A DNA stretch of 64,000 bases from Alphaproteobacteria bacterium (GTDB lineage Bacteria > Pseudomonadota > Alphaproteobacteria > Micropepsales > Micropepsaceae). Made by a program: the position numbers and the translations under genes. The stretch spans positions 3,705-67,704 of the forward strand of contig PLJH01000134.1 of the NCBI GenBank assembly GCA_003139615.1, read 5' to 3'. Below are positions 8,172 to 51,353 of this stretch, piece after piece (positions within the stretch are counted from its first letter, which is position 1; each line of letters starts with the position of its first letter). The notes beneath the pieces are model-generated. The model was not told where the DNA came from and did no database searches. It saw only the letters and a program-made list of their open reading frames with translations.

Positions 8172-8570
8172 ATCACTGCGAAAAATGCGTTCCGAAAAAT
8201 ACATGCAAGAAAGCCCGAAATCTCTCGCTTTTTCGCGAAAATAACAGGCGACGGTCGCCTGTTTCTTTGCCTATTATCGGCCTGTTCGTCGCCTGTTATC
8301 CGCTTGTTTCGCAAACCGGACACAGCGATGCAATCGCGCAACAGATTCGCGTCTCGTTCGGCATTCTCCCCTGTTAAACAGGCGAAATAACAGGGGAGAC
8401 TTCTGGTGCGATGCGTGAGCGCAATTCGCACCACCGGTTTTCCTCCCCCGCATGCGGGGGAGGTGGATCGCGCGCGATAGCGCGCGAGACGAAAGGGGCC
8501 ACTCGGCGTTGGCCCCCATCGACGCGCTTCGCGCGCCACTTCCCCCGTAAACGGGGGAAGAAAAGAGATA
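8172..8570. repeat. Composite ~400-bp non-coding element (RIME-like hairpins plus ACAGGC/GCCTGT short repeats)
   Basis: Reverse-complement homologue of 45180-45555; hairpins CCCCCGCATGCGGGGG and CCCCCGTAAACGGGGG. Confidence 0.8.
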
Positions 8571-9673: not shown

Positions 9674-9876
9674 CGGAGCGAAGTTCGCAATGCCAGTTAC
9701 GGCGACATGATACAGATTTGCCTCAAACGTTGTGGTGCGATTGACGAGTCAATTCTTGATGCACTTACGTTTGCTCGTTCAATATACCCGCACCACTAAC
9801 TGGCAGCATATTCCGTATCGTGTTGCCGTAACTTATCTGCCCATAACTCCTCCGCGATGTGAAGGGCGAGCGGCTG

Positions 9877-20759: not shown

Positions 20760-20982
20760 GGGACCCCCAACGCAGATTGGTCTGCGTCGATGTTCTCTTC
20801 GCGAAAATCGACGCGTTGCGTCGCCACGCCCCACGGCGCCGCCCCGGTCGCCCGACCGATGACAGAAGATTAACCTGTCCGAAAACGACTGTGAAGTGGG
20901 AGAGCCCGGCCGGCCCCGAAAAAAACCAGGATATCCTATGTTGGTCGGCTGCGGACACCCGCGCGACCCGTACGGGTTCGTA

Positions 20983-24579: not shown

Positions 24580-24768
24580 GAAGGCCCCCCACAAGCAGGA
24601 GCAGTCTTGCGAGTGTCGCAGGCGAGACTGCTTCCTGGATTGATTCCGGAACGGAATGCGCAATCCCACCATGCGCAACGGCAGTTCAGTCTATTCGAGC
24701 AAACTTATCAACCCTGCGGCGGGCGCCTGCGCAGGATTGCGATCGTCTTTCGGATGCTGCGTAAGTGT

Positions 24769-32053: not shown

Positions 32054-32129
32054 TTTCTTCCCCGTTTACAGGGGAAGTGGCGCGCGGAACGCGCGTCGAT
32101 CGGGGCCCCGCTCCGTCTCGCGCGCTATC
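32054..32129. repeat. Truncated RIME-like element
   Basis: TTCTTCCCCGTTTACAGGGGAAGTGGCGCGCG...CGTCTCGCGCGCTATC matches half of the 8440-8564 and 45183-45310 copies. Confidence 0.8.
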
Positions 32130-32150
32130 ACGGCCAAGCCGCACGGTGCC

Positions 32151-32250
32151 AATGTGGCGATGGGTTGTGTGGTGCGCCCCGAAAGGCGACGCTTTTTCGC
32201 GAAATGTGCCTCAACCACAAACCGCAACACATAACCTGTCGCCGGAATCC
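32151..32250 (+). repeat. Island direct repeat, copy A (most diverged)
   Basis: AATGTGGCGATGGGTT...AGGCGACGCTTTTTCGCGAA...CCACAAACCGCAACACATAACCTGTCGCCGGAATC. Confidence 0.85.
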
Positions 32251-32295
32251 AAAAACTGTGAAAAACTCCTGGCTTGAAGGTGCTGCAATATGGCC

Positions 32296-32790
32296 ATGAA
32301 AGTGTATTTCGCCTCGGACCATGCCGGATTTGATGCCAAAAATAAGCTTGTCGAATATGTCCGCGATCGACTCAAATGCGAAGTCGAAGACTGCGGTGCC
32401 CTGGTAAACGATCCGCAGGACGACTACCCGGGAATCATTGCCGTTGCCGCCAAAAAACTTTCGGAAGACGTCGCTGCAGGGAAAGACAGTCGTGCCATCG
32501 TTGCCGGGGCTTCCGGACAAGGCGAAGCAATCGTAGCGAACAGGTTTAAAGGCGTTCGCTGCGCGCTCTACTATGGCGACCCCGGGAACGAGCAAGTGGA
32601 CGCTTCCGGAAAACATCTGGATATTCTCATGTCGACGCGCGAACACAACAACGCAAATGCGCTCTCCCTCGGTCTTCGGTTTCTGACTCTCGATCAAGCC
32701 AAAGACGCCGTCACGCGCTGGCTCGCAGCACCGTTTCCCGGAGAAGCGCGCCACGCACGCAGGATTACCCAGATAGATCAAGTTTCGTAA
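32296..32790 (+). CDS. rpiB: RpiB/LacA/LacB family sugar-phosphate isomerase
   Basis: SDHAGF, DDYP, GASGQGE, ANRFKGVR, REHNNAN, RHARRI. Confidence 0.92.
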   Translation: MKVYFASDHAGFDAKNKLVEYVRDRLKCEVEDCGALVNDPQDDYPGIIAVAAKKLSEDVAAGKDSRAIVAGASGQGEAIVANRFKGVRCALYYGDPGNEQVDASGKHLDILMSTREHNNANALSLGLRFLTLDQAKDAVTRWLAAPFPGEARHARRITQIDQVS

Positions 32791-32801
32791 TATGTTTCTG
32801 A

Positions 32802-32884
32802 AAATAGGGCGACGGCAGCAACGTTCCCCAGCCACTACTTTGCGTCATAAAGCGGCAGGAAACATTGCTGCCATCACCCTATTT
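32802..32884. repeat. REPIN-like inverted-repeat doublet
   Basis: 27-bp arms 32802-32828 and 32857-32883; 23 of 27 positions pair. Confidence 0.85.
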
Positions 32885-32975
32885 CTTGCGAACGGCTATA
32901 TCTGCGGCATGGCGCGACCATCCCGACACTGATAATTGACGGCGCGGCATCCATCTTACGTGCACCGGAGCAGAC

Positions 32976-33533
32976 GTGATCGTCATCGAGTTTGTCGTCT
33001 TCGTCGTTTCGTCGGGGCTGTTTTACAGTGGGCGCTTTCGCCACCACCTTTGGGCGGTGCTGATCGCGGGCGGCATCGCGACGGGTTCGTCACTCCTGTT
33101 CTTCTACGATCTCTATGAAAAACTGGAGTTGCGTACCGAGGCGTCGGTCAAAGTGGTCAAGGAGGTGGTGCGCGTGCCTGTCGTGCAGCACATCTCCCGG
33201 CCGCCTGCGCTCTCAAGGCCGGAGAATTGCCGGGCAGATTACCCCCTGATCGCACGCATCTTCGGTCAGGAGGGCACGACCGAACTTGCTTTCCAGGTGA
33301 TGGCCGACGGCACTCTGAGCAGCATCAAGGTCACCAAATCCAGCGGCTCGGACCGGCTCGACGACGCGGCGATCGACTGCGTGTCCAAGTGGCACTACCG
33401 GCCGGCGATCAGCAACGATCAGCTGGCCGACATGCCGATGACGGTGAAGGTGGATTGGAATCTCAAAGACGATGATTCCGACAAGAGCGCCCCTGCAGAC
33501 AAGAAAGACACGACCGCTGGAGGGGAGAAGTAA
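32976..33533 (+). CDS. Membrane-anchored TonB C-terminal domain protein
   Basis: Two N-terminal TM segments; YPLIARIFGQEGTT...SSGSDRLDDAA...WHYRPA; GGAG before GTG. Confidence 0.85.
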   Translation: MIVIEFVVFVVSSGLFYSGRFRHHLWAVLIAGGIATGSSLLFFYDLYEKLELRTEASVKVVKEVVRVPVVQHISRPPALSRPENCRADYPLIARIFGQEGTTELAFQVMADGTLSSIKVTKSSGSDRLDDAAIDCVSKWHYRPAISNDQLADMPMTVKVDWNLKDDDSDKSAPADKKDTTAGGEK

Positions 33534-33550
33534 GTAAAATACCGGAGCAA

Positions 33551-33620
33551 AATACCGGGACAGCTACTGCATTTCGCGGCCATATAAGTGATGCAGGGAA
33601 ATGCAGTAGCTGTCCCGTAT
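33551..33620. repeat. REPIN-like inverted-repeat doublet
   Basis: Perfect 19-bp arms GGGACAGCTACTGCATTTC (33557-33575) and its reverse complement (33598-33616). Confidence 0.9.
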
Positions 33621-33671
33621 CCGGAATTCCCCCGCATCGTGTCGCCACAATTCGATCTTACGTTCGGTCGG

Positions 33672-34601
33672 CTATCCTTCTTCGAAGAAGTCCTCATCGA
33701 CACGCTGCAACTCAAATGTTTCTTCGACTTGGCAACCGACATTGAAGCGAACCATTAAGTCAGCAAGCCCCAGCCCATCGATCAGTACAATGCGCTTGCT
33801 GAGCTGCGCCGCGGTTTCTCGGGCATCTTTCGAAAAGTCAGACGTTGTAACAAACACGCCCTTCGTCGCCCTGACACGGTCTAGACCGCCGAAGAAATCC
33901 CGTATCGCGCCTGGGCCAATATTGTTGCCAGTCGCATACCGTTTGGCTTGAACATACACGCGGTCCAGTCCAAGGATGTCTTGATCGATCAGCCCGTCCA
34001 CGCCACCGTCGCCGGAGCGGCCGATCGCTTTGCCCGCATCTTCGACGCTGCCGCCATAGCCGATTTTCGTCAGTAGTCGTACAATTAGCCGCTCGAAAAA
34101 GTCCGGCTTCGCGTTTTGTATGCGATCGATCAACTCTGCCTTAAGTACGTCGGTGCTGCGGCGATGCGCACGGCGCAATAAATCTTCGGGCGTATCGGTA
34201 TCCTGATCCCGAACAGGCATCTGAGGGGTCGCGGATTCGGCGTTACGCGATTGGGACGCTCGAGTCCGCTCCTTGAATTCTTGATATTCTTTGAATTGTT
34301 CGAGATAGCGTCCGTCAATTTTTTCTAAACCGGCTTGCAGGGTGGACCGACCACGGTCAGTGAGTTGGAATACGCCCCTGCGTACATATTCAACAAGACC
34401 CGCCTGCTTCAGGTACGATTTTGCCCAATGAACTCGATTTGCAATTAACGTCTGCCGCCCGGATGGCAACATCACATTCCGTTCGTCGTCAGTCAGCCGA
34501 AGCTCCTCGGCAACGCGTTCGACGACGTCACTGATTGCTGCTGGACCACTCGCCACTGACCGCAGCACGGGAAGCATTAGCGCCTGATAGTCTGGTATCA
34601 T
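33672..34601 (-). CDS. mrr: Mrr family type IV restriction endonuclease
   Basis: MIPDYQALMLP Mrr_N start, NRVHWAKSYL, DGGVDG...VYVQAKRY catalytic D-QxK. Confidence 0.95.
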   Translation of the reverse strand: MIPDYQALMLPVLRSVASGPAAISDVVERVAEELRLTDDERNVMLPSGRQTLIANRVHWAKSYLKQAGLVEYVRRGVFQLTDRGRSTLQAGLEKIDGRYLEQFKEYQEFKERTRASQSRNAESATPQMPVRDQDTDTPEDLLRRAHRRSTDVLKAELIDRIQNAKPDFFERLIVRLLTKIGYGGSVEDAGKAIGRSGDGGVDGLIDQDILGLDRVYVQAKRYATGNNIGPGAIRDFFGGLDRVRATKGVFVTTSDFSKDARETAAQLSKRIVLIDGLGLADLMVRFNVGCQVEETFELQRVDEDFFEEG

Positions 34602-34832
34602 TTCCATCACACAATTCTGAAATGCCCTGCGTTGTATCAATTACTATAGGGGATGTCTCACGAACTAGGATCAGTCGACAGTTTGCCTATTCACCAGACG
34701 CGACGCCGCGCGAATTGATCGAGAATCCCCATCGTGTTGCCATAACCGTTTAAATTCCCCTCGTCACTTCCGCCGAGCTTGTTCCGCGGCGCCGATCGCC
34801 TGACGCATTCACAGCCCGCGACCTTCGCCTGG

Positions 34833-36011
34833 TTACGGCTTCACCCTGAAAACCGTTCCGCAGCTTCCGCCGGCGAAGCAGTCGACCTGACCTCCGCCGC
34901 CCACCGTGGTGCCGTAAAGTGTGCCGTTGACGTCGAGCAAAGCCGCCTGCGGGCCGATGCCGTCGTTGCCGCCCTTGAATGCGTAGACGACAGATTCGGC
35001 GCCTGCGGTGGTGATCGAATAGACGGTGCCGCAGCCTTCGCCGTTGCATCCGCTCCCGCCGCCGGAGTCGGTGGTGCCGTACAGCGTCCCGCCCACATCG
35101 ATCAGACCGGAATAGGGATTGGCGCCGTCGCTGCCGCCGTCGAAGACGTGAAGCGTGTTTTCCGCGCCTGCGGTCGTCACCGAATAGAAGGCGCCGCTGT
35201 CCGTCGTGCCGTAGAACACCCCGTCGACATCGATCAAGCCGCCATAGGGAAAGGAGGCGTTGCCCGAGAAGGCATAGACGATGTTCTCCTGGTCATTCGC
35301 CGTCACGGCATACACGGTGCCGCAGCCATTGCCGCCGCAGGCCGTTCCGCCGCCGTATACGGTCGTCCCGTAGAATGTTCCGCCGACATCGATCACGCCC
35401 GCATTTTCGGGTTGGCTGCCGTCGCTGCCGCCGGCAAACGCATGGATGACTTTTTCTTTGCCTTTCGGCGTGACCCAGAAAACCGTGCCGCAGCCTGCGC
35501 CGCCGCAGCCCGTTCCTCCGCCGTCCGTCGTGGTTCCGTAGAGCCGGCCTCCGACGCGCAGGAGTGTCGCGCCGGGCTGATATCCGTCGTCGCCGCCTTG
35601 GAAGGCATAGACGATCTTTTCGGTGCCATCCGGCGTCACCGAAAATACCGTCCCGCAGCCTGCGCCCCCACAGCCGGTTCCGCCCCCATAAGCCGTCGTG
35701 CCGTAGAGCAATCCGCCGACGTCGATCAGTCCGGCGCGCGGCGCCTCGCCGTCGCTTCCCCCATTGAAGGCATAGACCACATGTTCCACGCCTTTGGGTG
35801 TGACCGCGAATACGGTGCCCGAGTGGGTGGGGCCGCCTGCTTCCGTGGCGCCGTAGAGGAGTCCACCCATAGCGATCAGCTGACTCAGCGGAAGGGCTCC
35901 GTCACTGCCGTTCTTGAAATCGTAAATCGCACGTTCCGTGGCGGCGTTCGCAGGCGCAGCCATCTGGAAAACGACCGCAGCGGCACAGGCAGCCAGAATC
36001 GACTTCAACAT
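34833..36011 (-). CDS. Secreted tandem-repeat protein of the GloVer (Gloeo_Verruco) type
   Basis: Signal peptide then about 6 repeats of F.GGSDG..P...L....G.LYGTT..GG......GTVF.VT. Confidence 0.85.
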   Translation of the reverse strand: MLKSILAACAAAVVFQMAAPANAATERAIYDFKNGSDGALPLSQLIAMGGLLYGATEAGGPTHSGTVFAVTPKGVEHVVYAFNGGSDGEAPRAGLIDVGGLLYGTTAYGGGTGCGGAGCGTVFSVTPDGTEKIVYAFQGGDDGYQPGATLLRVGGRLYGTTTDGGGTGCGGAGCGTVFWVTPKGKEKVIHAFAGGSDGSQPENAGVIDVGGTFYGTTVYGGGTACGGNGCGTVYAVTANDQENIVYAFSGNASFPYGGLIDVDGVFYGTTDSGAFYSVTTAGAENTLHVFDGGSDGANPYSGLIDVGGTLYGTTDSGGGSGCNGEGCGTVYSITTAGAESVVYAFKGGNDGIGPQAALLDVNGTLYGTTVGGGGQVDCFAGGSCGTVFRVKP

Positions 36012-36339
36012 CGCGGTTGTCCTTCGTCCAAGTGTTCGCAGCGGGTCAAAGGACCCGGTCGGCGATTGCCTGCATTGTACCATGGAATGCCGAGCCGGCC
36101 TTCGTCCACGTACGAACAGCGGGACGCGCGATGATGGGAAACGCAATTGCTGTCGAGCATCAGCTCAGTCTACCAGAAAGGAAAGGTTCCTACCGGTTTT
36201 GAGTGCGAATGCTACGGAGAAATTCGAGATTGCGGAGGACGCGCATGGGGTGAACATTGGTCCAGTCACCATGAACAGCCAAGCAGCACCTCGGTCGCGA
36301 ACGGGATTTGAGCAGGAGAGAAGTACGATCGCGGGGGCT

Positions 36340-37482
36340 TCACCGGGGCCGTTCGGCTGTGTACGTGGCAGGCACCAATGGCGTTTTTTTCGCTTCGAGT
36401 TCGGCTTTCAGCGCTTCGATCTCGGCTTGCTGCGCCTTCAACGCCGCAACAAGCACGGCCGTCAGCTGCGCGTACCGGACACCTTCGAGCCTGCCATTGC
36501 TGTCATAGGCTGCCAGACGTGGGTCGATTTTCTGCACTTCTTCGGCAATCAGGCCTGGCTGCACCTTCCGGTCATAGGATGGATGTGTCTTCTGATTCCA
36601 GGTGTACCAGATCGGCTGGAGCTGCATCACTTCGGACAGCGCATCCTGGCCAATGCGCGATTTGACATTCTTGAATTCCGCCAGCGAAGAAATACAGCCC
36701 GCGGCATCCGCGCCAACCTGACCGGAAGATGCGTTCCAGCAAAGCGATTCGCCGGTTTGCGAACCCGGTGCGGAAAAGTAAATGGCGGACTTGGCCGTCA
36801 ACGACGCGATAAAAGTCGTCGGCCCGCCGAAGAGATTTTTTGCCGTGCTCGTATCGTGGACGGCATAACACGAACTGAACGTAATTGCACAATTGGTGTT
36901 GGCCTCCGAAATGTCGATTCCAAACCAGGTTTCATATCCGGAGTTATTGCCGGTCGGCATGTCGATATGCATGCCGATAAGGCCGAGCCTCTCATTTGGT
37001 CCGCTGACGGCAGGGCTGCCGCTAAGCGAGAGTTGACGTAAATCGTAAGTACAGGTCGTTGCGCAGTTCAAATTGCCGTAGGCATTGCCGAACGAGAGCG
37101 CGTTGATCTCATAGAAGTGTGGAGGAAGTGCCGCCGCTGCAACACCGGAGCCGTTCGAGAGGTCGTCTACTTCGTAATCCATCGCCGCGTAGCCACGGCC
37201 ACAGCACGAACCGGTCCAGCCGGAGCCCAGCGATAGGCCGACATCCAACCCTACATAGGAATTTAGTGCGCCGGAACCGGAGAGAACGACATGATTGTAT
37301 TGACCGAATGCAAATGCACTTGGCGCCGTCGGCGCCAAAGTAACGACTTCGTTGATTCCGTAAGCGTTATTGCTCCTTGGTGACGCCGCTCCTTGCACCG
37401 TGAACACGTCATTGGGAACATTCTGTGCGAGACACACAGGCGCGTACACGACCAGCGCCAGGGTGGCGAAAAGGACTCTCAT
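36340..37482 (-). CDS. Secreted protein with C-terminal intramolecular chaperone (Peptidase S74) domain
   Basis: Signal peptide; SSLAEFKNVK...LQPIWYTW...GLIAEEV...VRYAQLTAVLVAALK plus coiled coil. Confidence 0.85.
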   Translation of the reverse strand: MRVLFATLALVVYAPVCLAQNVPNDVFTVQGAASPRSNNAYGINEVVTLAPTAPSAFAFGQYNHVVLSGSGALNSYVGLDVGLSLGSGWTGSCCGRGYAAMDYEVDDLSNGSGVAAAALPPHFYEINALSFGNAYGNLNCATTCTYDLRQLSLSGSPAVSGPNERLGLIGMHIDMPTGNNSGYETWFGIDISEANTNCAITFSSCYAVHDTSTAKNLFGGPTTFIASLTAKSAIYFSAPGSQTGESLCWNASSGQVGADAAGCISSLAEFKNVKSRIGQDALSEVMQLQPIWYTWNQKTHPSYDRKVQPGLIAEEVQKIDPRLAAYDSNGRLEGVRYAQLTAVLVAALKAQQAEIEALKAELEAKKTPLVPATYTAERPR

Positions 37483-37591
37483 AGCGGCTCCAGCTTGTTC
37501 AGCCCTTACGGAATTTGCCGCATCAGCTGTTAAGACATAGTAACGGAGATGTACGCAATTTGAGAAACGAATTCAGAAAGAACAGAATGCG

Positions 37592-37608
37592 AATGTGGCG
37601 ACGGGTTA
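37592..37608 (+). repeat. Island direct repeat, copy B, 5' part (intron 5' exon)
   Basis: AATGTGGCGACGGGTTA directly before the intron GTGCG. Confidence 0.85.
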
Positions 37609-39547
37609 GTGCGCCGGGAGACCGGCAGAAAGTAGGCGGTGAGAGTCCGCTGCAGTGAAGGAGGAGCGATCCACACTGGCCCCGAGTCATGCGCGTTGCA
37701 TCGCGAGGTGCAGGGCGAAGCGTTGACAGGGGAAGATGCAGGCCAGCCATTGAGCGGCGAAAGCGCCTATCCCGGATGCCGATGTTGTTAACCTGATAGA
37801 AGGCGACACGGGCACGACCGATATCGCGAGGACGTGCACGATCCGGCGTCGTCTGAGACCCTGGCATGCATCGACGCTTTCTGCACGGGAACCGGGAGGT
37901 CTCCAAGCTTACCTCGCGCGGTCGTGCGCGAGGCATCAACGGGAAGGTGATGAACCGAAAGCCGATGAAACGAAGCGTGGAGAAGTCGGACACGCCGATA
38001 GTACCTGTGAAGCGTGCGAACAATGCGGACTTGTCCTCCGGAGCCTTGGCGAAGGAGGAGCAATCCGCAACGGAGTGCGTGGAGGGAAGCGGCGTGAAGG
38101 AGAGAAATGCGGACTTGCAAAGCACGCTCCGGACGCAGAGCCGGGTCGGCGTGTCACAGGCGCAGGAACGCATACGAGAAGCGATCACCAGAAACGAACA
38201 GGAGCAACTGACAGCGCTCCTCCATCACGTGACTGTCGACGGGTTGCGCGCGGCATTCTTCGGTTTGAAGCGCGATGCGGCGCCCGGCGTGGATCGCGTG
38301 ACATGGAAGGAGTACGCGGACGGGTTGGAAGAGCGGCTTGCCGATCTTCACGGCCGCGTACATCGCGGAGCGTACCGGGCGCTGCCGTCGCGACGGAAGT
38401 TCATTCCGAAGCCGGACGGCAGATTGCGACCGCTCGGCATCGCAGCTCTGGAAGACAAGATCGTCCAGTCGGCGATGGTGGCGATCCTGACGCCTGTCTA
38501 CGAGGCGGAGTTCCTGGGGTTCAGCTATGGGTTCCGGCCCGGGCGCAGCCAGCACAATGCGCTGGATGCGCTCGCATTCGGAATCGCAAGACGAAAGGTG
38601 CGATGGGTCCTCGACGCCGACATCCAGTCGTTCTTCGACCGGATCAGCCATGAATGGTTGGTCAAGTTCGTCGAACACCGGATCGGCGACAAGCGCGTCA
38701 TCCGCTTGATCCGGAAATGGCTCAAGGCAGGCGTGCTTGAGGACGGCATCGAGATCGAGACGACGCAAGGAACGCCGCAGGGCGCTGTCATCAGCCCGCT
38801 GCTGGCGAACATCTACCTGCACTATGTCTACGATCTCTGGGCTCAACAGTGGCGCAAGCGGCAGAGTAACGGCGACATGATCGTCGTGCGGTGCCGACGA
38901 CACCATCGTCGGGTTCGAGCACCGTAGTGACGCAGAGAAGTTCTTGAAAGACTTGCACATCAGACTGGCGCAGTTCGGCCTGAACTTGCACCCCGAAAAG
39001 ACACGGCTGATCGAGTTCGGCAGAGATGCCATCGACGACCGTGCCCAACGGGGCGAGGGTAAGCCCGATACGTTCGACTTCCTCGGCTTCACGCATTACT
39101 GCACGAGAAAGAAGGACGGAACGGGCTTCAAACTCGGCCGCAAGACACAGGCCAAACGCAAACGCGCCAAGCTGAAAGCGATCAAGGACGCTCTGCGAAG
39201 GAACATGCACAAGCCGATCGACGAGCAGGGGCGTTGGCTGGCGGCCGTACTGCGAGGCTACTTCGCGTACTTCGCAGTGCCGACCAACAGCCCGTCACTA
39301 TCGGCATTCCGCCAACAGGTGAAAGAACGCTGGCTTCGCGTCCTGCGACGCCGCAGTCAGCGTTCGATCCTCACGTTCGAACGGATGCAGAAAATCGTCG
39401 ACCGGTATCTGCCTGTCCCGCACGTCTTACATCCGTGGCCCGAACAACGCTTCCTCGTCACTCACTCGACTTAAGAGCCGGATGCGGGAATCCCGCCAGT
39501 CCGGATCTGTGCGGGGGGCGCTCAGCAATGAGCGTCCCTACCGCGAC
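37609..39547 (+). mobile_element. Group II intron (RT/maturase, no endonuclease domain)
   Basis: 5' GTGCG; domain V GAGCCGGATGCGGGAATCCCGCCAGTCCGGATCTG from 39475; domain VI ending CCCTACCGCGAC; excision restores the repeat sequence. Confidence 0.95.
37950..39474 (+). pseudogene. ltrA: Group II intron reverse transcriptase/maturase, frameshifted at YADD
   Basis: RPLGI, SYGFRPGR, DADI, GTPQG; CGG-T-GCC-GAC-GAC at 38889-38901 lacks 2 nt of the Tyr codon; frame continues ADDTIVGFE; start approximate. Confidence 0.9.
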
Positions 39548-39632
39548 AGCGTCGCATGTCGGTAGGCGACGCTTCTTCGCGAGCCGCGCCTCCGCCACAA
39601 ACTGCAACACATCACCCGTCGTCGGAATCTCC
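39548..39632 (+). repeat. Island direct repeat, copy B, 3' part
   Basis: AGCGTCGCATGTCGGTAGGCGACGCTTCTTCGCGA...CCGCCACAAACTGCAACACATCACCCGTCGTCGGAATCTCC. Confidence 0.9.
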
Positions 39633-39682
39633 CGCTCCCAGCGTTGTCGCCGGTCCCCGGACCGGCCGCAAGCCGACCGCAC

Positions 39683-40438
39683 TTACTGCGCGATCGCCTG
39701 TCCGGACATGACAGTGCCGGTATCGGTTTCAAGCACCAGCAGCTTCTTGCCGGCGCTCACCGCGACCGAGACGAAGTTGTAGGTCTTGCTCTTGTAGGTG
39801 ATCTGCGCACTGCCGGTGCAATTGGAGTTGGCAGTGTAGGTTCCCGTGAGCTTGTGCGACGAAATCGCGCCGTTTTCGCTGAAGGTGTCGGTGGCGGTGG
39901 CATTGCCTTTGCCATCCAGTGTCAGCCGGCCCACAACCGACACGGCGGTATCGGGCGTTGCGATCTCATGCCCGTCGACGTGCTTTGCAAAACTCTTCGT
40001 TTTTCCGGTGAGACCGCAAACGGTGACGCCCTGCGCGTATCCCTCGCCCGACTCCGTGTAGCCCGTGTCCGTGCGGATCAGCTCGAACTCCGCATTCGCA
40101 TTGTCCAGCACGATATTGTAGTGGCTGACGGCGCTTGTCTGGTCCACGAACGTAGCTGCGCCCGTGCAATCGCCGGCGATCGAATATGTACCGGTCACGG
40201 TGAGGGTTTGGATCGTTCCATTGGCGCTTTGCGTGCCGGTTCCCGTCAGTCCGCCCGAGCCGTCCGAATCGATCTGAAAGACTCCTGCGCCAAAAATCCC
40301 CGTAGAGGTGGAGCCGCTCGCAAGAACGCCGTAAATACCGCTGAAGCTCGCGTTGGTGCAAGCCGCCGCTGCGGGCTCGGCGACGGCGAACGCCGATAGC
40401 GCCATGACAGCCCAGCCGAACATTTTCCGGATATGCAT
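39683..40438 (-). CDS. Secreted hypothetical protein with two repeated beta-rich domains
   Basis: Signal peptide, SD GGAGAAGG; duplicated motif GTYSIAGDCTG / GTYTANSNCTG. Confidence 0.8.
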   Translation of the reverse strand: MHIRKMFGWAVMALSAFAVAEPAAAACTNASFSGIYGVLASGSTSTGIFGAGVFQIDSDGSGGLTGTGTQSANGTIQTLTVTGTYSIAGDCTGAATFVDQTSAVSHYNIVLDNANAEFELIRTDTGYTESGEGYAQGVTVCGLTGKTKSFAKHVDGHEIATPDTAVSVVGRLTLDGKGNATATDTFSENGAISSHKLTGTYTANSNCTGSAQITYKSKTYNFVSVAVSAGKKLLVLETDTGTVMSGQAIAQ

Positions 40439-40576
40439 ACGCCTTCTCCCCCACAAATGCTGCCAATAGATATCATCCGACACTCGCCGGACGACCCCTG
40501 ATTGAGGCAGAAAATACTGCATTTCTGAAGTACGCGGAAGCCCCAGCGGCCGTTCTCGTCGCGGCCACCGCACCCG

Positions 40577-40809
40577 AACGTGGCGACGGGTTAAGCGTTG
40601 CGCGTCGGAAGGCGACGCTTCTTCTTCGCAAACTGCGCCTCCGCCACAAACGGCAACACATCAGCTGTCGTCGGAATCTCCAGTCTCCGGAATCTCCGGT
40701 CACAGACGCAACCTGTTATTGGGACATGACGACGAGCGGCATCACCATTCCGACGCCAGCCACGGGAAACACGCGCAACGAACCCGGCATCACGGGCCCG
40801 AGCACGACG
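40577..40809 (+). repeat. Island direct repeat, copy C (long form)
   Basis: Aligns with 44574-44796 over ~230 bp including GGAATCTCCAGTCTCCGGAATCTCCGGTCACAGAC and GGGAAACACGCGCAACGAACCCGGCATCACGGG. Confidence 0.92.
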
Positions 40810-40829
40810 CGGGCGGAACACGGGGACGG

Positions 40830-40922
40830 AACACGGGGACGTGAAATCGATTTCCGAAGTTTCCCGCGGCTACGGCCGCGAATCACCGCTCCTCTTGTAA
40901 TGGATTAAACGTCCCCGCATTC
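40830..40922. mobile_element. Non-autonomous mini-element (REPIN/MITE) related to the ends of the 42042-42958 element
   Basis: Left ACACGGGGACGTGAAATCGATTTCC; right CTCTTGTAATGGATTAAACGTCCCCGCATTC mirrors CTCTTGTAACGAAATGGATTAGACGTCCCCGTATTTC at the transposase 3' end. Confidence 0.8.
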
Positions 40923-41434
40923 TTGAAGGCGTAGGCGCAGGTTTAACGTTCAATAATTCGACCGACCCTGTCACTGGTATGCCTTATTTGGGTGCAAACG
41001 GTCAAGCTATTGATGTAGTCGATGCTTATGCGGCGGGACCGTCGGCTGGAGATGGCAGCGACGTCGGAGATGTCTCGAACTTGCAATTCTTCCCTACTCG
41101 GGCCGCTCTGAACAGCTTTCTAGATGCTCAACCTCCTAATACCTGGACTGAAATATACGGCGACAGCAATGCGAACGGGCCGGGAGGGATTGGTGAGTCA
41201 TACATTTTCGCAGGTGCTGTGGACCCCGGATGGGACCCAGGCTTTACCCCGATATTTTATGCGGGCCAGAATCCCTCATTCAAATTCTCAGCGGACCAAT
41301 TGGCCAATGTTGTATATGGACACGAACTTAGCCACCTTAATTTGAATGGTGTTCCGGGCAATCTTGGGAACAAAGCAGGTGAAAAAGCGGCCTGGATTGC
41401 CGGCTTTAAATGGGCAGGTCTAACGGGCTATTAA
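40922..41434 (+). pseudogene. 5'-truncated orphan polymorphic-toxin tip with HExxH motif
   Basis: Frame is open from the mini-element end; no SD at ATG 40979; YGHELSH; AT-richer than core genes. Confidence 0.6.
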
Positions 41435-41501
41435 TTCATGCTTGCCAACAGTCGCGCTAAGTCAGAATATCTCTGGGTGGCAGACGATTGCGGGAGGAAT
41501 A

Positions 41502-42014
41502 ATGAGACCCGGTCTTGCGGCGCACTATTTCATCGACAAAGTCGGGCGTTACCTGCTTATGACGACATTGGGAATTGGAGTCGTATCTCTGCTACTTACC
41601 ACCACTTCTTCTGGACAGACTCCGGAAAAGCCCTCGCATTTTGATCAGAGACTGCTCATCCTGAGCGCCGGAGGTGCGGCGTGTTCAATTAAGCAAGACG
41701 GCAAACTGATTGAACAGCTTGTTACCCCGATTATAACGAACGAATATTCTGCAAAGATTATTACATTGCATATGTCATCGCAAGACGACATTGTCGTGAC
41801 CTGCTCCAAAGAGGGCTATGACGACCAATCGAGAGTACTTTCCTATGGTCCGGAGACATGGATTGCAGATCATGCACCCTGTCCAGCGCCGGAGCATGCC
41901 AGTACGGAGGAAATTCGAGCAGATTGCGCCAACTACAATTCAGCAACGACGAGTACAAGAATGGAATTCCCGGAAGCGACCTCGCTCCTTCTCAAACGTA
42001 GGGAAGTCAAATAG
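41502..42014 (+). CDS. Exported hypothetical protein, candidate immunity protein
   Basis: GGAGG SD, hydrophobic N-terminal stretch, four Cys, directly after the toxin tip. Confidence 0.6.
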   Translation: MRPGLAAHYFIDKVGRYLLMTTLGIGVVSLLLTTTSSGQTPEKPSHFDQRLLILSAGGAACSIKQDGKLIEQLVTPIITNEYSAKIITLHMSSQDDIVVTCSKEGYDDQSRVLSYGPETWIADHAPCPAPEHASTEEIRADCANYNSATTSTRMEFPEATSLLLKRREVK

Positions 42015-42041
42015 CGAATTCGGGTGTGTCCCTTCTTCCGG

Positions 42042-42958
42042 GAAATACGGGGACGTCTAATCTATTTCCAAATGCAACCACAGTGATGCGTTGCGATTGC
42101 TGCAGCGCAATTCGGGGGACGCTTAATCTATTTTCAAATCTTGTCGTGGTCTGCGCCGACGACAAACCGACACGGGATTCCGGCTCGATAGGCCGTCGTC
42201 GACCTTACGCCGACAAGGCGCGTGGCGATATATTTTGGTCATGGCTCGTCTCGCTCGCATCGTCGTCCCCCGATGTCCGCATCACGTTACCCAGCGCGGC
42301 AATCGGCGCGAGCCCATTTTCTTCGAGGTCGGCGACCAGGAAATCTATCGCGATCTTCTCGCCGAACATTGCAGCAAATCGTCGGTCGAGGTCTGGGCCT
42401 ATTGCTTCATGCCAAACCACGTTCACCTCATTCTCACGCCAAACGACGCCTCGGGTCTCGCGCGGGCATTGGGCGATACGCATCGACGCTACACCACGTT
42501 CGTCAACGCGCGAGGGCGCTGGAGCGGGCATCTTTTCCAGAACCGTTTCGCCTCCGTCGCGATGGACGAAGCCCATCTCATCGCCGCCGTGCGCTATGTC
42601 AGCCTCAATCCCGTGCGCGCAAGGCTGGTGGCGCGTACGGAAGAATGGCCATGGTCGAGCGTTCGCGCCCATCTCGCCGCGCAAGACGACGAACTCGTTG
42701 CGGTGGCGCCGGTTCTGTCACGCGTGCCCGATTTCGAGTCCCTCATCGCGCCGGATGACGGCGACGAGCGCGCCTTTGCGAACATTCGCGCAGCCGAAGG
42801 AACGGGCCGGCCGCTCGGCAACGCGCAATTTATCGAAGGCCTCGAGCGGATTCTCGGCCGCACCATCGCCCGGCGCGCGCCGGGTCGCAAACGAAAGAGC
42901 GGCGATGACGACACGCCGCTGCTCTTGTAACGAAATGGATTAGACGTCCCCGTATTTC
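42042..42958 (+). mobile_element. RAYT-type HUH transposase element bounded by 27-bp inverted repeats
   Basis: GAAATACGGGGACGTCTAATCTATTTC (42042-42068) versus the reverse complement of 42932-42958: one mismatch; extra degenerate copy at 42109-42135. Confidence 0.9.
42241..42930 (+). CDS. Y1 HUH transposase (REP-associated tyrosine transposase / IS200-like)
   Basis: HHVTQRGNRR, YCFMPNHVHL (HUH), LFQNRF, RYVSLNPVRA (catalytic Tyr), WPWSS; frame intact. Confidence 0.93.
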   Translation: MARLARIVVPRCPHHVTQRGNRREPIFFEVGDQEIYRDLLAEHCSKSSVEVWAYCFMPNHVHLILTPNDASGLARALGDTHRRYTTFVNARGRWSGHLFQNRFASVAMDEAHLIAAVRYVSLNPVRARLVARTEEWPWSSVRAHLAAQDDELVAVAPVLSRVPDFESLIAPDDGDERAFANIRAAEGTGRPLGNAQFIEGLERILGRTIARRAPGRKRKSGDDDTPLLL

Positions 42959-42960
42959 GG

Positions 42961-43143
42961 GTATATAACGACAACTGTGGTTGCGATGATGACAACGGAG
43001 CGCAATCTCCCCAGCCAGTACCGTCTCCGACTCCAGAATTGCCGCCGGCTTCTGACGATGAAAAAAAGGCTGTCGTCGAATTGACTGTTGGTGGTGTAAT
43101 ATTCTGGATTATTGTCATCGGGGGGCTGCCCGCCGGAATTTGA
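42961..43143 (+). pseudogene. Start-less C-terminal fragment of a putative polymorphic toxin
   Basis: YNDNCGCDDDNGAQSPQPVPSPTPELPP...VGGVIFWIIVIGGLPAGI*; begins at the element's right end; stop is 2 nt before the next ATG. Confidence 0.5.
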
Positions 43144-43145
43144 AC

Positions 43146-43613
43146 ATGATCAATATCCTAAATCGGCGTGGCGACGTGTTGTTCACATATCCGAATGCTA
43201 ACGGATTAGACTTTGATGGGGCTGATCTTCGTCACGCGACGCTCAAGGGGGCGGTGCTGAATGGAGCGAGTTTTGTCGACGCGGACCTTTCGGACGCGTG
43301 CTTGGAAAACGGCGATCTATATTGGGCAATCCTATTTAGGGCTAATTTGCAACGAGCAAATTTGCGTGGCGCTCTCCTAATGGGTTGTGATCTTAAGGAG
43401 GCAAATTTGAGTCATGCCGACCTGACCAATGCGAATCTCGGGCCAGATAACATGGGCGGATTCACTCATTTGGAAGGGGCAAATCTCTCAAGCTGTAAGA
43501 TCGACGGTGCAATATTGAATGGCGCAATCTATGACATTGCAACGATTTTTCCTGAAGGGTTCGACCCCAGGGACAGCAATATGACTAAGAGAATCCGTAG
43601 ACACGATACGTAA
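43146..43613 (+). CDS. Pentapeptide-repeat protein, candidate immunity protein
   Basis: ADLRHATLKGAVLNGASFVDADLSDACL... A(D/N)Lxx repeats. Confidence 0.88.
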   Translation: MINILNRRGDVLFTYPNANGLDFDGADLRHATLKGAVLNGASFVDADLSDACLENGDLYWAILFRANLQRANLRGALLMGCDLKEANLSHADLTNANLGPDNMGGFTHLEGANLSSCKIDGAILNGAIYDIATIFPEGFDPRDSNMTKRIRRHDT

Positions 43614-43619
43614 ACCTGA

Positions 43620-44420
43620 CAGCGCGTGCAGAAGACCGTCGGCAGGGCCGTAACGGACTTCATCTGTGACCTTTCAGCCACCTGCTCACGGAGGCGAATG
43701 GTGCTTCTGGCGCGATGCTGCTCGAATATATCTGGAACAATGATACTGCGTTTCCCGGGCCAATATACCGACACCGCGACTGCGCTGAACCAGAACTGGT
43801 TCCGCGATTACGATCCTGCGATTGGACGCTATGTCGAGAGTGATCCCGTTGGATTGTTGGGTGGTATCAACACTTACGCTTACGTCGATGGGAACCCGCT
43901 CAGTTTGAAGGACCCTTCGGGCAGATTAGGCTTGGTGGGCGCAGGCATTGGCGCGGGCATCGGCGGAGGCGGGGACCTCGCGTATCAGTTATACGAGAAC
44001 GGTGGACGACTAGGGTGCGTTAACTGGGGACAAGTTGCCGCTGCGGCGGGGATTGGCGCCTTCATCGGCTCGGGGGCCGAATTTCTTTTCGCTGGAGAGG
44101 CGTTGGCAGACACAATCCCGCTATTCAGGGCCGTAAATCCCGCCGAGCTTTCGGACATTGAGGCGACAAGAGGGTTTCGAAATCCCTTTGGTACAGAAGT
44201 TAAGTACTTTTCTACCACCGAAGAGGGCGCTTCATCTTACGCGCAGCAGACTTCCGGAACGGGCTTCTATCAAGGGCCATATACGATCGTTCAAACAACC
44301 GCTCCCGCAGATATCCTCAATAATCCATTGCTCACCAGTACTGTGGATCGTGGTATATCCACCGTGACGGATCCGACTGAAACGCTTCCGCAATTAGGAC
44401 CAATACAAATATTGCCATAA
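43620..44420 (+). pseudogene. Orphan Rhs core fragment plus C-terminal toxin domain
   Basis: LRFPGQY, RDYDPAIGRYVESDPVGLLGGINTYAYVDGNPLSLKDPSG; upstream QRVQKTVG..TDFICDLS/HLLTEANG..EYIW is frameshifted and joined directly to LRFPGQY. Confidence 0.88.
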
Positions 44421-44573
44421 GGTCTTATACGAACTGGATTCGAACTGGATTGGAGTTTGGGGTCAGCGTGCGAATTGGTAGCGTAGAAGGAGTTTGTGGC
44501 GAGGAGTTGAGAAAGCGCTTCTTTGCGAGTGCTTTGCCGGAACCGGATTTGAAGTAGCGTTCCAGACTGGGCG

Positions 44574-44796
44574 AATGTGGCGACGGGTCAGGCGTTGCAC
44601 GTCGGAAGGCGACGCTTCTTCGCGAACTGCGCCTCGGCCACAAGCTGCAGCACATCACCTGTCGTCGAAATCTCCAGTCTCCGGAATCTCCGGTCACAGA
44701 CCCACCCTGTTATTGGGACATGACGACGAGCGGCAATCCGAGCCGGGTGCGGGAAACACGCGCAACGAACCCGGCATCACGGGTCTGAGCACGACG
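44574..44796 (+). repeat. Island direct repeat, copy D (long form)
   Basis: High identity to 40577-40809. Confidence 0.92.
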
Positions 44797-45179
44797 AAGT
44801 GCAGGCGGGATTACCGGCAGGATTCAGCAGCACGATCTGGAGCGAGGGGCATCAATGGTGGGCTGCCTTGTCTCCTCGCGTTGCCGCCGGTGCGAAGCGG
44901 GGAGCGGTTTCTGACCAATTGGGTTGACAGAAGAACCGGGAGGGTCGTAGGCTTCAGAGGAACATTTCATGAACTAAACTGATGGATACGACAAAAACGC
45001 AGCAGCCGATGGACCGGGGGCGTCCTCGCCCGCCTCCTCGAAGCTTTGGCGCGCGAGCCCGCCAACGTCTGCGCAAACGTGACATTCCGGGCGGGCGAGG
45101 ACGCCCGCGGTGCATAAACAATTGCGTGCGTCTTCACGCTTGCATGTCACGTTCAGATGTTGAGCGGGGATTGCTCTCA

Positions 45180-45555
45180 ATCTTTCTTCCCCCGTTTACG
45201 GGGAAAGTACGGCCGAAGGCCGGGATGGGGGCACTCCAAGCGCCGAACGTCCCCCTTCGTCTCGCGCGCCGGCGCGCGCGATCCACTTCCCCCGCATGCG
45301 GGGGAAGAAAGAAGAACGATTCCCTGTTATTCCCTGTTTATCAGGGAATTTCATCGAACGCGGCTCGAACGGATTACGGCACGCGCGGGGCGCGTCCGTT
45401 CACGCGGAGAACGGGCGGATATCAGGCGAAAGAACAGGCGAAATATCAGGCGGAAAACAGGCGAAGATATTGCGTGTTGCTCACGCCAAAAGCCTTGCAA
45501 TCATTGGCTTATTTCTTGCCCGCGCACTGCGCGGGAATTTTTCGCGGTTGAAAGC
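45180..45555. repeat. Composite ~380-bp non-coding element (RIME-like hairpins plus ACAGGC/TCAGGC repeats)
   Basis: Colinear with the reverse complement of 8172-8570: RIME core, CCCTGTTAT..CCTGTTTA.CAGGG, four (A/T)CAGGC repeats, AATTTTTCGC tail. Confidence 0.82.
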
Positions 45556-45655: not shown

Positions 45656-47506
45656 ATGACCGAACATAGCGCGACGGCCAGGACGCCTGTCACGGAACGT
45701 GCCGGCCTATTGCTGCGCCGTTCCGCGATTGCGCTGACGCAACTCCGGCGTATCGTGCGTTCGAGCGAGGTCACGCAAATTTTCGCCTGCGCGTTGCTGG
45801 GCGCCGCAGTGGGCGGCATCACGGCCTTGCTGCGCGACGCCGTGGAATTCTTTCACCGCGTCGACTTTGCGCTTTCGGGTCCGACATTGCTGAGCGCCGG
45901 TCTGGGCATCGATCGCTGGAGAATTGCGCTCGTGCCTGCGCTCGGCGGTCTTTTGCTGGGGGCGATGGCGCTCGTCACGCGCCGGTTTCGCGGCGCCGAT
46001 ATCGTCGATCCCGTGGAAGCCAATGCGCTTTATGGCGGACGCATGTCGCTGGTCGACAGCCTCCGGCTTGCGCTTGCGACCTTCGTATCCAACGGCAGCG
46101 GCGCATCGCTCGGGATGGAGGCGGGTTATACGCAACTCGGTTGCGGACTCTTTTCGGCTATCGGCGGATATTTCAGCCTGCGCCGCGCAGACCGGCGGAT
46201 ATTCGTCACGGCGGGCGCCGCGGCCGCCATCGCTGCAGCATTCAACGCACCGTTGGCGGGCGCGTTTTATGGCTACGAGCTGATCCTCGGCGGCTACACG
46301 TTGAACGCGTTGGCGCCGGTTGCCGTCGCTGCGGTGTGTGGGACGTTGGCGCAAAACGCTTTGGGAGGCGACCAGGCGCTTTTTGCGGTGGCATCCGCAC
46401 AGCACGTCGATCTTCGCAGCTACGTCATATTCGGTGCGATGGGCGTATGCGCCGCGGGGCTCGGTATCTTCGCGATGATGTGCGTGACCTGGACGGAGCG
46501 CGGGCTGCGGCGCGTGTCGATTCCGGATTGGCTGAGACCGTTCATAGGCGGCATCGCGCTCTCCGCCATCGCGCTTTACGACCCGCAAGTCCTGGGAAGC
46601 GGTCACGGCGGAATCCAGTATCACCTCGAGACCCAATGGCCGCTTTTGCCGCTGGTTATCATGCTCATCGCAAAAGTGCTGGCGTCCGGAATTTCGGTCG
46701 GTTCGGGTTTTCGCGGCGGATTGTTCAGCTCGTCACTATTCATCGGTTGCCTGTTCGGCGCAGTGGCGGCGCTGGTCGCGACCGCCTTCGATCCGTCGTT
46801 CGAAGCGCAGCGCACGGCGTTTCTTCTCGTCGGAATGGCGTCGGTTGCGGCCGCGATCGTGGGCGCGCCGTTTACGATGGTGTTTCTCGTGCTGGAGGCG
46901 ACGGGCGATTTCCCGCTCACCATCGGCGTGCTCGTGAGCGTCATCACGGCGGCCACCATCGTGCGGCTCACCTTCGGATATTCGTTCTCGACCTGGCGAT
47001 TTCATGCGCGCGGGCTGGGACTTCGCGGCGCGCACGATATCGGCTGGATCGCCGATCTCAACGTCGCCCGGATGATGCGATCCGACCCGAAGGTCGTGGC
47101 AAGCGAGATGTCGCTCGCGGGGTTACGCGCCAAATATCCTCCGGGCAGCGCCAAGCGCGTCTTCGTCACGGCGCCCGACGGGCACTACGCGGGCTGGGTC
47201 GATATGGCCGCGGTACACGATCCGCAATTCGACGACGTCGTCGACGACGCGGCCGTGGCCGATATTGTCGGGCCCGCAACGTTCTATCTTCTACCGTCCG
47301 AAAATGTGCGAACGGCACTGGCGCGGTTCGAGCAGTCGCAGTCGGAGACTTTGCCCGTTCTTTCGGCACGCGCCGATCCGCGGGTCATCGGCTACATGAC
47401 CGAGGCCTTTGCGCTCAAGCGCTACGCGCAGGAGCTTGAGCGCAGGCGCAGCGCGGAACTCGGCGAAAAGGACCTGTTTTCACTCGGCCAAATGCCGAAT
47501 TCGTGA
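45656..47506 (+). CDS. CLC chloride channel/antiporter with CBS domains
   Basis: GASLGMEAG, AAAFNAPLAGAFY, GFRGGLF, MVFLVLEATG; C-terminal CBS pair. Confidence 0.92.
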   Translation: MTEHSATARTPVTERAGLLLRRSAIALTQLRRIVRSSEVTQIFACALLGAAVGGITALLRDAVEFFHRVDFALSGPTLLSAGLGIDRWRIALVPALGGLLLGAMALVTRRFRGADIVDPVEANALYGGRMSLVDSLRLALATFVSNGSGASLGMEAGYTQLGCGLFSAIGGYFSLRRADRRIFVTAGAAAAIAAAFNAPLAGAFYGYELILGGYTLNALAPVAVAAVCGTLAQNALGGDQALFAVASAQHVDLRSYVIFGAMGVCAAGLGIFAMMCVTWTERGLRRVSIPDWLRPFIGGIALSAIALYDPQVLGSGHGGIQYHLETQWPLLPLVIMLIAKVLASGISVGSGFRGGLFSSSLFIGCLFGAVAALVATAFDPSFEAQRTAFLLVGMASVAAAIVGAPFTMVFLVLEATGDFPLTIGVLVSVITAATIVRLTFGYSFSTWRFHARGLGLRGAHDIGWIADLNVARMMRSDPKVVASEMSLAGLRAKYPPGSAKRVFVTAPDGHYAGWVDMAAVHDPQFDDVVDDAAVADIVGPATFYLLPSENVRTALARFEQSQSETLPVLSARADPRVIGYMTEAFALKRYAQELERRRSAELGEKDLFSLGQMPNS

Positions 47507-49213: not shown

Positions 49214-49446
49214 CGAGGAATAGCGTGCAGCCTGAAATGATCTCTATTTCAAAGGCTTATCCGGGAATTCTGCATCTGCGCATGAGCAAGACTGGACATT
49301 GCCGAACACACGATTGTTTAGCCCGGTATACAACTTGAAGTTTTATCTGAATACATATTCCCTCTTGACGGGAAATTGGTCGGGCGCATCATCCTCAGTC
49401 TGACGGACTCGTGTGCGCATAGCCGCGACACCTTGAGGGGGAAACC

Positions 49447-51243: not shown

Positions 51244-51316
51244 ATCCGGCGGGGAGATTGTGCCGCGTTACGTTCGTGCGCTCACTCAGGAGCGTTCGCT
51301 AACTTCCTGTCATTCA

Positions 51317-51353
51317 AATAAAAAACCCCGTTCCGCTTTCGGGGAACGGGGTT
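51317..51353 (-). terminator. Rho-independent terminator of the bactofilin gene
   Basis: AACCCCGTTCC-loop-GGAACGGGGTT stem followed by a T-run on the minus strand. Confidence 0.85.

Follow-up and report, generated by a model that had tools for sequence, protein, structure and literature searches.

Motif copies in a strain-variable island of a peat alphaproteobacterium are probably REPINs with one resident RAYT

Between mrcA and prfB, a 64-kb stretch of DNA from a Rhizomicrobium-like alphaproteobacterium of peat (contig PLJH01000134.1; hereafter the window, all positions being counted from its first nucleotide) carries functionally unrelated genes, copies of a degenerate palindromic end motif and a gene for a Y1 transposase of the HUH class. 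The locus raises the question of what these ends do. A first-pass annotation had read them as attC-like sites at which the transposase captures and stacks cargo genes, in the manner of an integron that has no tyrosine integrase. That integron-like capture model is not supported by the analysis described here. We propose instead, at a probability of roughly 80%, that the motif copies are repetitive extragenic palindromes (REPs) arranged as REP doublets forming hairpins (REPINs), together with one resident REP-associated tyrosine transposase (RAYT), in a strain-variable island. A REPIN is an inverted doublet that forms a hairpin, and as a non-autonomous mobile element it is moved by the Y1/HUH transposase, the RAYT.

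The motif was searched as AAATASGGGGAC-N10-TTTC with up to three mismatches, and the 64-kb window was compared with 100 shuffles; its distribution over core and accessory DNA was judged within this window. Eight matches were found against 0.54 expected, a number reached by 0/100 shuffles, and all eight were confined to 32802–42957. A shorter common core, AATNNGGSGAC, gave six exact matches vs. 1.46 expected, all within 32.8–44.6 kb. The strong copies named by the first-pass annotation were borne out by these counts, while its weaker ones (34646–34659/34721–34732, 37541–37560 and 44453–44476) were without statistical support. The copies form inverted pairs. The first (32802–32828/32858–32884, arms of 27 nt, 85% complementarity) belongs to the REPIN-like doublet A1 (32802–32884), which begins 12 nt past the rpiB stop (32790). 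The second (33556–33580/33593–33617, 92% complementarity) belongs to the REPIN-like doublet A2 (33550–33620), between the stops of the TonB gene (33533) and mrr (33672). The third (40829–40852/40899–40922, 79% complementarity) makes up the REPIN-like doublet A3 (40829–40922), whose subfamily is close to that of the RAYT ends, and the fourth (42042–42068/42932–42958, 27 nt, 96% complementarity) lies on either side of the RAYT gene, near which a third copy, on the plus strand, was found at 42109–42134. By eye, 42016–42032 is a partial copy of the left end. Folded as single strands, A1, A2 and a third doublet beat their shuffles, with z = −3.7, −8.4 and −2.5, respectively. The four doublets of the array have only the outer core (~12 nt) in common, and their inner 10–14 nt differ. 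Between mrr and the gene that comes after it, 34646–34732 may be a doublet that has decayed; it resembles the others by eye, was not reported by the gapless repeat search and is not significant alone.

The transposase gene (42241–42930, plus strand) is intact and encodes a protein of 229 aa that matches Pfam Y1_Tnp (E = 9e-11), with the HUH motif in PNHVHLIL and the catalytic tyrosine in RYVSLNPV. It scored 70.7 bits on the NCBIfam model REP_Tyr_transpos (cut-off 80) vs. 16.5 bits on the IS200 model NF033573 (cut-off 55), and its top match in the PDB was Escherichia coli TnpAREP (4er8), with both the HUH and the tyrosine motifs aligned. Its identification as a RAYT-type HUH/Y1 transposase, already made in the first-pass annotation, was confirmed by these matches. 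Exact-protein look-up returned no record for the RAYT from its TTG start, nor for mrcA; the protein from the ATG start (42241) was matched, and the identical 229-aa protein is present on at least 24 contigs. The protein family is very large (at least 8000 candidates), and its members carry database names such as 'REP-associated tyrosine transposase' or 'putative transposase'. One relative, 78% identical, comes from a Rhizomicrobium metagenome-assembled genome (MAG); plasmid-borne relatives are rare and less than 35% identical.

The gene is the center of an 850-bp unit (42109–42958, plus strand) consisting of a left end, the gene and a right end. This unit is 99.5–100% identical in loci L002–L010 and L047. 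In the contig alignment its ends are sharp, and the DNA next to it differs, with ~10 left flanks and several right flanks. Homology among the contexts begins at the left end (42109–42135, plus strand), a diverged REP with the sequence AATTCGGGGGACGCTTAATCTATTTTC, and stops at the right-end REP (42932–42958, minus strand), which lies 1 nt past the RAYT stop codon. The first-pass annotation was right in placing the best-preserved motif pair around an intact Y1 transposase, although the left terminus is at 42109 and not at 42042. In relatives of the RAYT, the left REP lies ~85–130 nt before the ATG, the same place as 42109–42135. The right-end arrangement is likewise the same in loci L014, L036, L046, L050 and L051, where this REP stands, inverted, on both sides of RAYTs of 78–81% identity, which bears out the proposal that the motif copies are the REP-type ends of a RAYT and REP doublets. 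The REP-RAYT-REP layout was also found in Rhizomicrobium and palsa alphaproteobacterial MAGs. A RAYT, its REP ends and solitary REPINs are all present, and it is by these that a REPIN-RAYT system is defined (PMC3116915; PMC5581495). In relatives of ~96% identity, the unit is syntenic next to a pentapeptide-repeat gene. Its last 286 nt are 100% identical in one of these (L056) and the flanking DNA there is ~96% identical, which points to recent spread or homogenization of the unit, as judged from the alignment. In this population, the 850 bp still act as one block that moves or recombines.

Solitary doublets were found in many places. The REP at 42042, the next 37 nt and the right end at 42932–42958 together make a canonical 92-nt doublet (A4; fold z = −10.7), whose left REP and loop occupy 42042–42105 (plus strand) and whose right REP is common to the RAYT unit. 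The joined form that has no RAYT (42105 to 42931) was found in three runs (X1, X2 and X3), and its depth in X1 was 50.7 vs. 9.5 for the RAYT gene, i.e., ~5 times the single-copy depth. A scan of JGI metagenomes for the REP gave 37 loci, and the 92-nt doublet with its conserved loop was present, with no transposase nearby, in ~12 JGI contigs, always in extragenic DNA, in some cases 24–30 nt past the stop of an open reading frame (ORF) and in others ahead of a start. Many different loose flanks were seen at REP ends in the contig data. The other subfamilies are dispersed as well. A3 is 100% identical at L009:1764–1858 between other flanks and has a relative of 77% identity in a Rhizomicrobium MAG (L053); both flanks of an A2-type unit in run X4 switch exactly at 33551 and 33617; and an A1-type hairpin occurs in another context in run X6, where the flank switches at 32801. 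Doublet size is ~67–94 nt per motif pair. A1, A2, A3 and A4 are four sequence subfamilies, of which only A4 has the right-end REP of the resident RAYT.

With A1 and A2 just past stop codons, as are several of the metagenome copies, such hairpins might be taken for selected terminators or mRNA-stabilizing stem-loops rather than mobile DNA. However, identical units of 67–95 nt, loops included, stand between unrelated genes, by starts as well as stops, their stems are 24–27 bp long with no T-run after them, and a transposase gene has this very sequence at its ends. The dispersed identical copies contradict termination or stabilization as a sole explanation, which we consider extremely improbable, although the hairpins may have a secondary role in transcription.

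A second repeat, B, had been overlooked in the first-pass annotation. It is ~100 nt long and present in four plus-strand copies: B1 (32151–32248), B2 (37592–39628, its halves at 37592–37608 and 39548–39628 split by a group II intron), B3 (40577–40677, with a conserved tail to 40809) and B4 (44574–44671, with a conserved tail to 44796), the last two placed by repeat search and alignment. The origin of B is suggested by locus L050 of a Rhizomicrobium MAG, where two RAYT paralogues lie side by side. Paralogue 1 (78% identical to the RAYT of the window) has the A-type REP on its flanks, whereas paralogue 2 (64.6%) lies between the arms of a perfect 27-nt inverted repeat, AGAATCCGGCGACAGGTTAAGTGTTGC, which is the sequence of the B ends, B1 included. 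Because of this match, we assign B by sequence to the REPIN family of a sister RAYT that is absent from the window. B-type doublets also occur in loci L031 and L052. The A and B REPs have an outer core in common, which the motif of the first-pass annotation had approximated. At least five REP subfamilies (A1, A2, A3, A4 and B) share an outer core near AAT-N-N-GG-S-GAC and differ in the inner stem, A4 carrying the right-end sequence of the resident RAYT and B going with the paralogue outside the window.

Two other identities were considered for B and rejected. The intron sits at GGGTTA^AGCG, inside a GTTRRRY-like heptamer, and B was accordingly examined as the attC site of an integron or of a cluster of attC sites lacking an integrase (CALIN). 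The heptamer (GTTAAGC) is near the 5′ end of B and the palindrome reads 5′-GTT...AAC-3′ on both strands, the reverse of the attC order, and the B ends match the inverted repeats around a RAYT paralogue. A structured RNA was ruled out by the lack of any Rfam match at E up to 1 and by folds of B3 and B4 that were no better than shuffles.

The group II intron (37609–39547, plus strand; Rfam and Pfam matches) lies in the 5′ REP of B2 and has a broken reverse-transcriptase ORF. Without it, the halves of B2 align gap-free to B3. It scored 189 bits on RF02005 and 41.6 bits on RF00029, and its RVT_1 and GIIM domains fall on two ORFs, split near 38890–38927, by eye at the YADD motif. Since copies of the intron in runs X2 and X3 have 2 extra nt (CT) at 38890, plus a G>A change at 38891, the window copy looks defective. 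The depth of the intron is several to ~20 times that of its flanks, so it is multi-copy, and other copies have different 3′ flanks. The tails that follow B3 (40678–40809) and B4 (44672–44796) are conserved over ~125–130 nt; B and tail together align at 87% with gaps, and the two copies share no conserved ORF. In run X4, the B tail from 44697 onward follows the RAYT unit directly, with TC between them, on a contig matching L002 in its left flank.

If it works as E. coli TnpAREP and IS608 do, the RAYT would bind the folded REP on single-stranded DNA, nick beside it through its HUH/tyrosine center and rejoin the REP elsewhere in extragenic DNA. The known REPIN-RAYT systems (GI–GIII of Pseudomonas fluorescens SBW25; the REPs and bacterial interspersed mosaic elements of E. 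coli with TnpAREP/YafM) have the same Y1/HUH protein between inverted REP flanks, extragenic REP hairpin doublets that outnumber the gene, and several REP flavors paired with RAYT paralogues. In those systems, too, REPINs cluster beside RAYTs and beside each other (PMC3116915, PMC5581495, PMC3479197). The crowding of elements in the island most likely reflects this clustering, together with the tolerance of accessory DNA for insertions and the rearrangements that repeats favor; it is no proof that the motif is a cassette-capture site. The system in the window differs from the known ones in several respects. It has a handful of copies vs. tens to hundreds, its REPs have no GTAG-type 5′ tag and a core near AAT-N-N-GG-S-GAC, its protein is 229 aa long and falls just under the NCBIfam RAYT cut-off, many contexts contain near-identical copies of the entire REP-RAYT-REP unit, and its host is a Rhizomicrobium-like peat alphaproteobacterium.

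Some of these differences weigh against a REPIN-RAYT system. Copy number is low for a classical one: REP abundance did not reach tens to hundreds per genome, depth in X1 suggests ~5 copies, database matches are few, and the exact REP pattern gave one match in a complete related chromosome of 4.96 Mb and five in all representative genomes. Low counts of flanking 16-mers are, however, on record for some RAYT groups (PMC5581495). The score of the RAYT is below the NCBIfam equivalog cut-off (70.7 vs. 80). A classical RAYT has one copy per genome and is inherited vertically (PMC5581495), whereas an identical RAYT unit in many contexts is more like an insertion sequence. Apart from the inverted repeat at 9695–9833 described below, the elements are absent from the ~50 kb of flanking core DNA in the window, which has several intergenic gaps of 78–233 nt. 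Lastly, A1, A2 and A3 have no RAYT assigned to them, and neither cleavage nor excision nor a circle was seen.

The same points raise the possibility of an ordinary insertion sequence (IS) of the IS200/IS605 family, purely selfish and with no long-term REPIN-RAYT association, whose doublets would be miniature inverted-repeat transposable elements (MITEs). IS200, IS608 and ISDra2 have the same catalytic fold and motifs, are small, transposase-only elements, presumably move by single-strand 'peel and paste' at hairpin ends, and have near-identical copies across a population. The near-identical unit in many contexts, at which assemblies break, and the low REP copy number would fit such an element. 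The protein, at 229 aa, matches the IS200 model poorly; the unit ends in imperfect 27-nt terminal inverted repeats where the family typically has subterminal hairpins, and separate doublet elements go with it; and no conserved 4–5-nt target was apparent, the last bases of nine left flanks giving no consensus. Despite its ~10 left contexts, the RAYT is single-copy by depth in X1, it keeps its synteny beside the pentapeptide gene in the relatives of ~96% identity, and the REP-RAYT-REP layout persists around RAYTs that are only 78–81% identical. An ordinary insertion sequence is therefore an unlikely, though not negligible, explanation.

The island is 13.1 kb long (~32126–45269), lies between mrcA and the CLC channel and prfB genes, and is lacking in some strains. 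A contig of run X2 carries the empty site, in which 32093 is connected to 45275 by 33 nt with a match to the left border, and a loose end of this type was also seen in run X6; the first-pass annotation's suggestion that the mrcA–prfB locus differs between strains was thus correct. GC content is 0.51–0.60 across 32–45 kb vs. ~0.62 outside. The island is bounded not by the motif but by a 12-bp direct repeat, CGTCTCGCGCGC (32114–32125 and 45258–45269), embedded in palindromes of a third family, P (CTTCCCCCGNNNNCGGGGGAAG). The left border (32056–32125) consists of a P palindrome (32056–32077) and the direct repeat, and the right border (45186–45307; fold z = −5.6) of two P palindromes (45186–45207 and 45286–45307) around it. 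P also occurs at 8439–8563, beside a second low-GC patch (8.7–11 kb), and in loci L021, L022 and L052; with a depth of 70–100x in runs X6 and X7, it is probably the main REP family of the genome, although no transposase belonging to it was seen. Runs X2 and X4 contain a third right-border allele, in which 45121–45318 (P doublet and direct repeat) is replaced by 31 unrelated nt. Transfer of the island onto a backbone of 78–90% identity, which locus L058 had seemed to indicate, was rejected, as the contig comes from a scaffolded MAG and has only N at the junction.

These borders bear on the capture model, in which the REP ends would be attC-like sites and the RAYT would stack single-gene cassettes. 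For it speak the confinement of the motif to the island, where it brackets rpiB, the TonB gene and mrr, an ORF bracketed by two inverted REPINs in locus L025, and variant junctions exactly at REP ends, with at least five right flanks of the RAYT and A3 abutting 43002 in L009. The border between presence and absence of the island is, however, not at the motif. Doublets are self-contained and stand alone in many unrelated extragenic contexts, and four different subfamilies occur in one array. In relatives, the 3′ ends of rpiB and TonB homologues continue into unrelated sequence without a doublet, and the segment from rpiB through A1 to the start of the TonB gene is colinear on an X2 contig of a diverged strain. 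Gene orientation across the array is mixed (+ + − − − (intron) − + + + + +), some blocks are multi-gene, and several adjoining genes have no motif between them. The inference of capture is unsupported because solitary doublets with both flanks changing behave as REPINs or MITEs do, not as cassette-bound sites. No circle junction (42958 to 42109) and no 'goes back' or excision joints at REP ends were present in the contig data, although contigs drop rare forms.

Comparison with integrons and CALINs leads to the same result. The array resembles them in having imperfect palindromes that fold as single strands between functionally unrelated genes, in a strain-variable region. Every integron criterion that could be tested nevertheless fails. 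The palindrome ends have no R″/R′ core sites (RYYYAAC...GTTRRRY), the A doublets ending in AAATAC.../...GTATTT. The sites are not one per gene, the genes have mixed orientation and stand in part in multi-gene blocks, and the palindromes are themselves mobile and occur alone. In agreement with the first-pass annotation, neither the ORFs nor the gene calls covered here gave a tyrosine integrase: there was no Phage_integrase match in the scanned ORFs or in gene calls from 32.2 to 57.5 kb, ORFs below 250 aa in 1–29.5 kb being outside the scan. We regard cassette capture as very unlikely.

The junctions themselves are varied. After the right end of the RAYT unit, at least five sequences were seen: that of the window, R2, R3, R4, or TC followed by 44697 onward. 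Each of three right flanks was paired with two different left flanks, and a single left flank with two different right ones, although some combinations may be assembly chimeras across the 850-bp repeat. Directly at the right end (42958/42964), 122 nt are deleted from the window and from L064; seven other contigs (L056–L062) have them, between the right end and TATAACGACAAC. In L009, A3 is joined directly to window position 43002 onward, and window 40924–43001 is therefore an indel that begins at the end of A3. Homologous recombination between the right REP of A3 and the right end of the RAYT unit was rejected for this junction, which skips 43 nt and has ~5 nt of microhomology. Junctions at REP ends are expected of mobile repeats that attract insertions and rearrangements. 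Of the first-pass view of the ends as recombination sites, the part that stands is that some variant junctions fall exactly on them; the border of the island does not. Partial tandem REP 5′ ends lie directly upstream of elements at 40816–40828, at 42016–42032 and in the left flanks of L002 and L004. GGAACACGGGGAC precedes A3, GAATTCGGGTG... precedes the REP at 42042, and GAATTCGGGGGACGCTTGCGCGCGAATTCGGGGCGCG precedes the RAYT unit in L002. Such copies may have been left behind when ends were processed repeatedly or abortively.

Much of this variation could arise if A, B, P and the RAYT unit served passively, as portable homology and landing pads rather than as catalytic capture sites. Homologous and illegitimate recombination, adjacent deletions and nested insertions at the repeats would then produce a mosaic island. 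The several combinations of RAYT-unit flanks, the 122-nt deletion of the window beside the right end, the group II intron inside B2 and the island border within a P doublet are all consistent with this. So are two nested insertions. In L005 (1028–1423), a 92-nt REPIN with a partial REP repeat before it truncates a RAYT copy at window position 42401, and in L004 (~899–2250) an IS3-family element (HTH_Tnp_1 and rve) interrupts the right-end REP of the unit. A precedent is given in PMC8450116, where ISPpu9 is described as inserting into REP sequences in Pseudomonas putida. The possible assembly chimeras among the flank combinations count against passive recombination, as does the short microhomology in L009, which is not homologous recombination between REPs. 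We consider a passive role plausible, at somewhat below even odds; it would supplement the REPIN-RAYT interpretation rather than replace it.

A more active role would make the REP ends true breakpoints for the exchange of adjoining gene blocks, with REPIN-dense islands assembled there. Adjacent DNA would then be swapped or carried along when the RAYT nicks and transfers a strand at a REP, or when a REP farther away serves as the end instead. We keep this in view because of the recombined RAYT flanks, the 40924–43001 indel at the end of A3 and the 122-nt deletion, and hold it to be decidedly unlikely. A known parallel is one-ended transposition capture by IS91 and ISCR elements, which also have an HUH enzyme and different DNA on either side between contexts; nearby alternative end-like copies could in principle mobilize adjacent DNA here too. 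Unlike those elements, the window has a Y1 enzyme with a single tyrosine, not a Y2 rolling-circle transposase. Moreover, no adjacent gene was seen traveling with the RAYT unit among ~10 left contexts, where the border at 42109 is sharp. If a breakpoint role were true, HUH enzymes would join integrases as organizers of accessory gene arrays; the data analyzed here do not establish such a role.

The locus adds a probable REPIN-RAYT system from an uncultured Rhizomicrobium-like peat alphaproteobacterium to RAYTs so far studied mostly in Pseudomonas and enterobacteria. It departs from the textbook arrangement in having few copies and a unit that, as a whole, appears to be mobile. With several REP subfamilies, one outer core and paired RAYT paralogues, it suits work on how a RAYT recognizes its own REP. 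The REP-RAYT-REP unit, apparently still moving or spreading, would stand between 'domesticated' RAYTs and true insertion sequences. The repeats also mark a hypervariable spot with an empty-site allele.

The genes around and within the island are as follows. On the plus strand, mrcA (29576–32020, encoding PBP1A) precedes rpiB (32290–32790) and the gene for a TonB C-terminal domain protein (32976–33533). On the minus strand are the Mrr restriction endonuclease (33672–34640), a GloVer-repeat protein (34833–36146), a protein with a weak match to the Peptidase_S74 chaperone (36340–37482) and an ORF with no assigned product (39683–40573). Two further ORFs with no assigned product (40979–41434 and 41442–42014, both plus) stand before the RAYT region. 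Beyond it, also on the plus strand, come the pentapeptide-repeat protein (43140–43613), an orphan RHS core-associated C-terminal piece (43626–44420) and the CLC channel (45656–47506), then a second TonB_C gene and prfB. The relatives of ~96% identity keep the order RAYT unit, pentapeptide gene, RHS piece, B4, P and CLC channel. The pentapeptide gene and the orphan RHS piece (43140–44420) are conserved in relatives L056–L062. The RHS piece has the RHS-associated core at aa 40–99, followed by a C-terminal domain with no family match, and looks like a toxin tip that has been displaced.

Several features lie outside the island. The region 49216–51320, between prfB and a bactofilin gene (2.1 kb, with a 598-aa ORF), is absent from L056–L060, which are ~96–97% identical on both sides, and by this comparison it is a second strain-variable insertion. 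At 17070–24678, two large adjoining minus-strand ORFs with two-partner-secretion (TPS) domains and GLUG motifs look like two-partner-secretion exoproteins. The longest local inverted repeat of the window is at 9695–9833 (arms of 45 nt, 71% complementarity), 22 nt past the stop of a nucleotidyltransferase ORF. It is a hairpin doublet with the outer core AGTTACGGCGAC, placed in the family by eye, and may represent a further REPIN subfamily outside the island.

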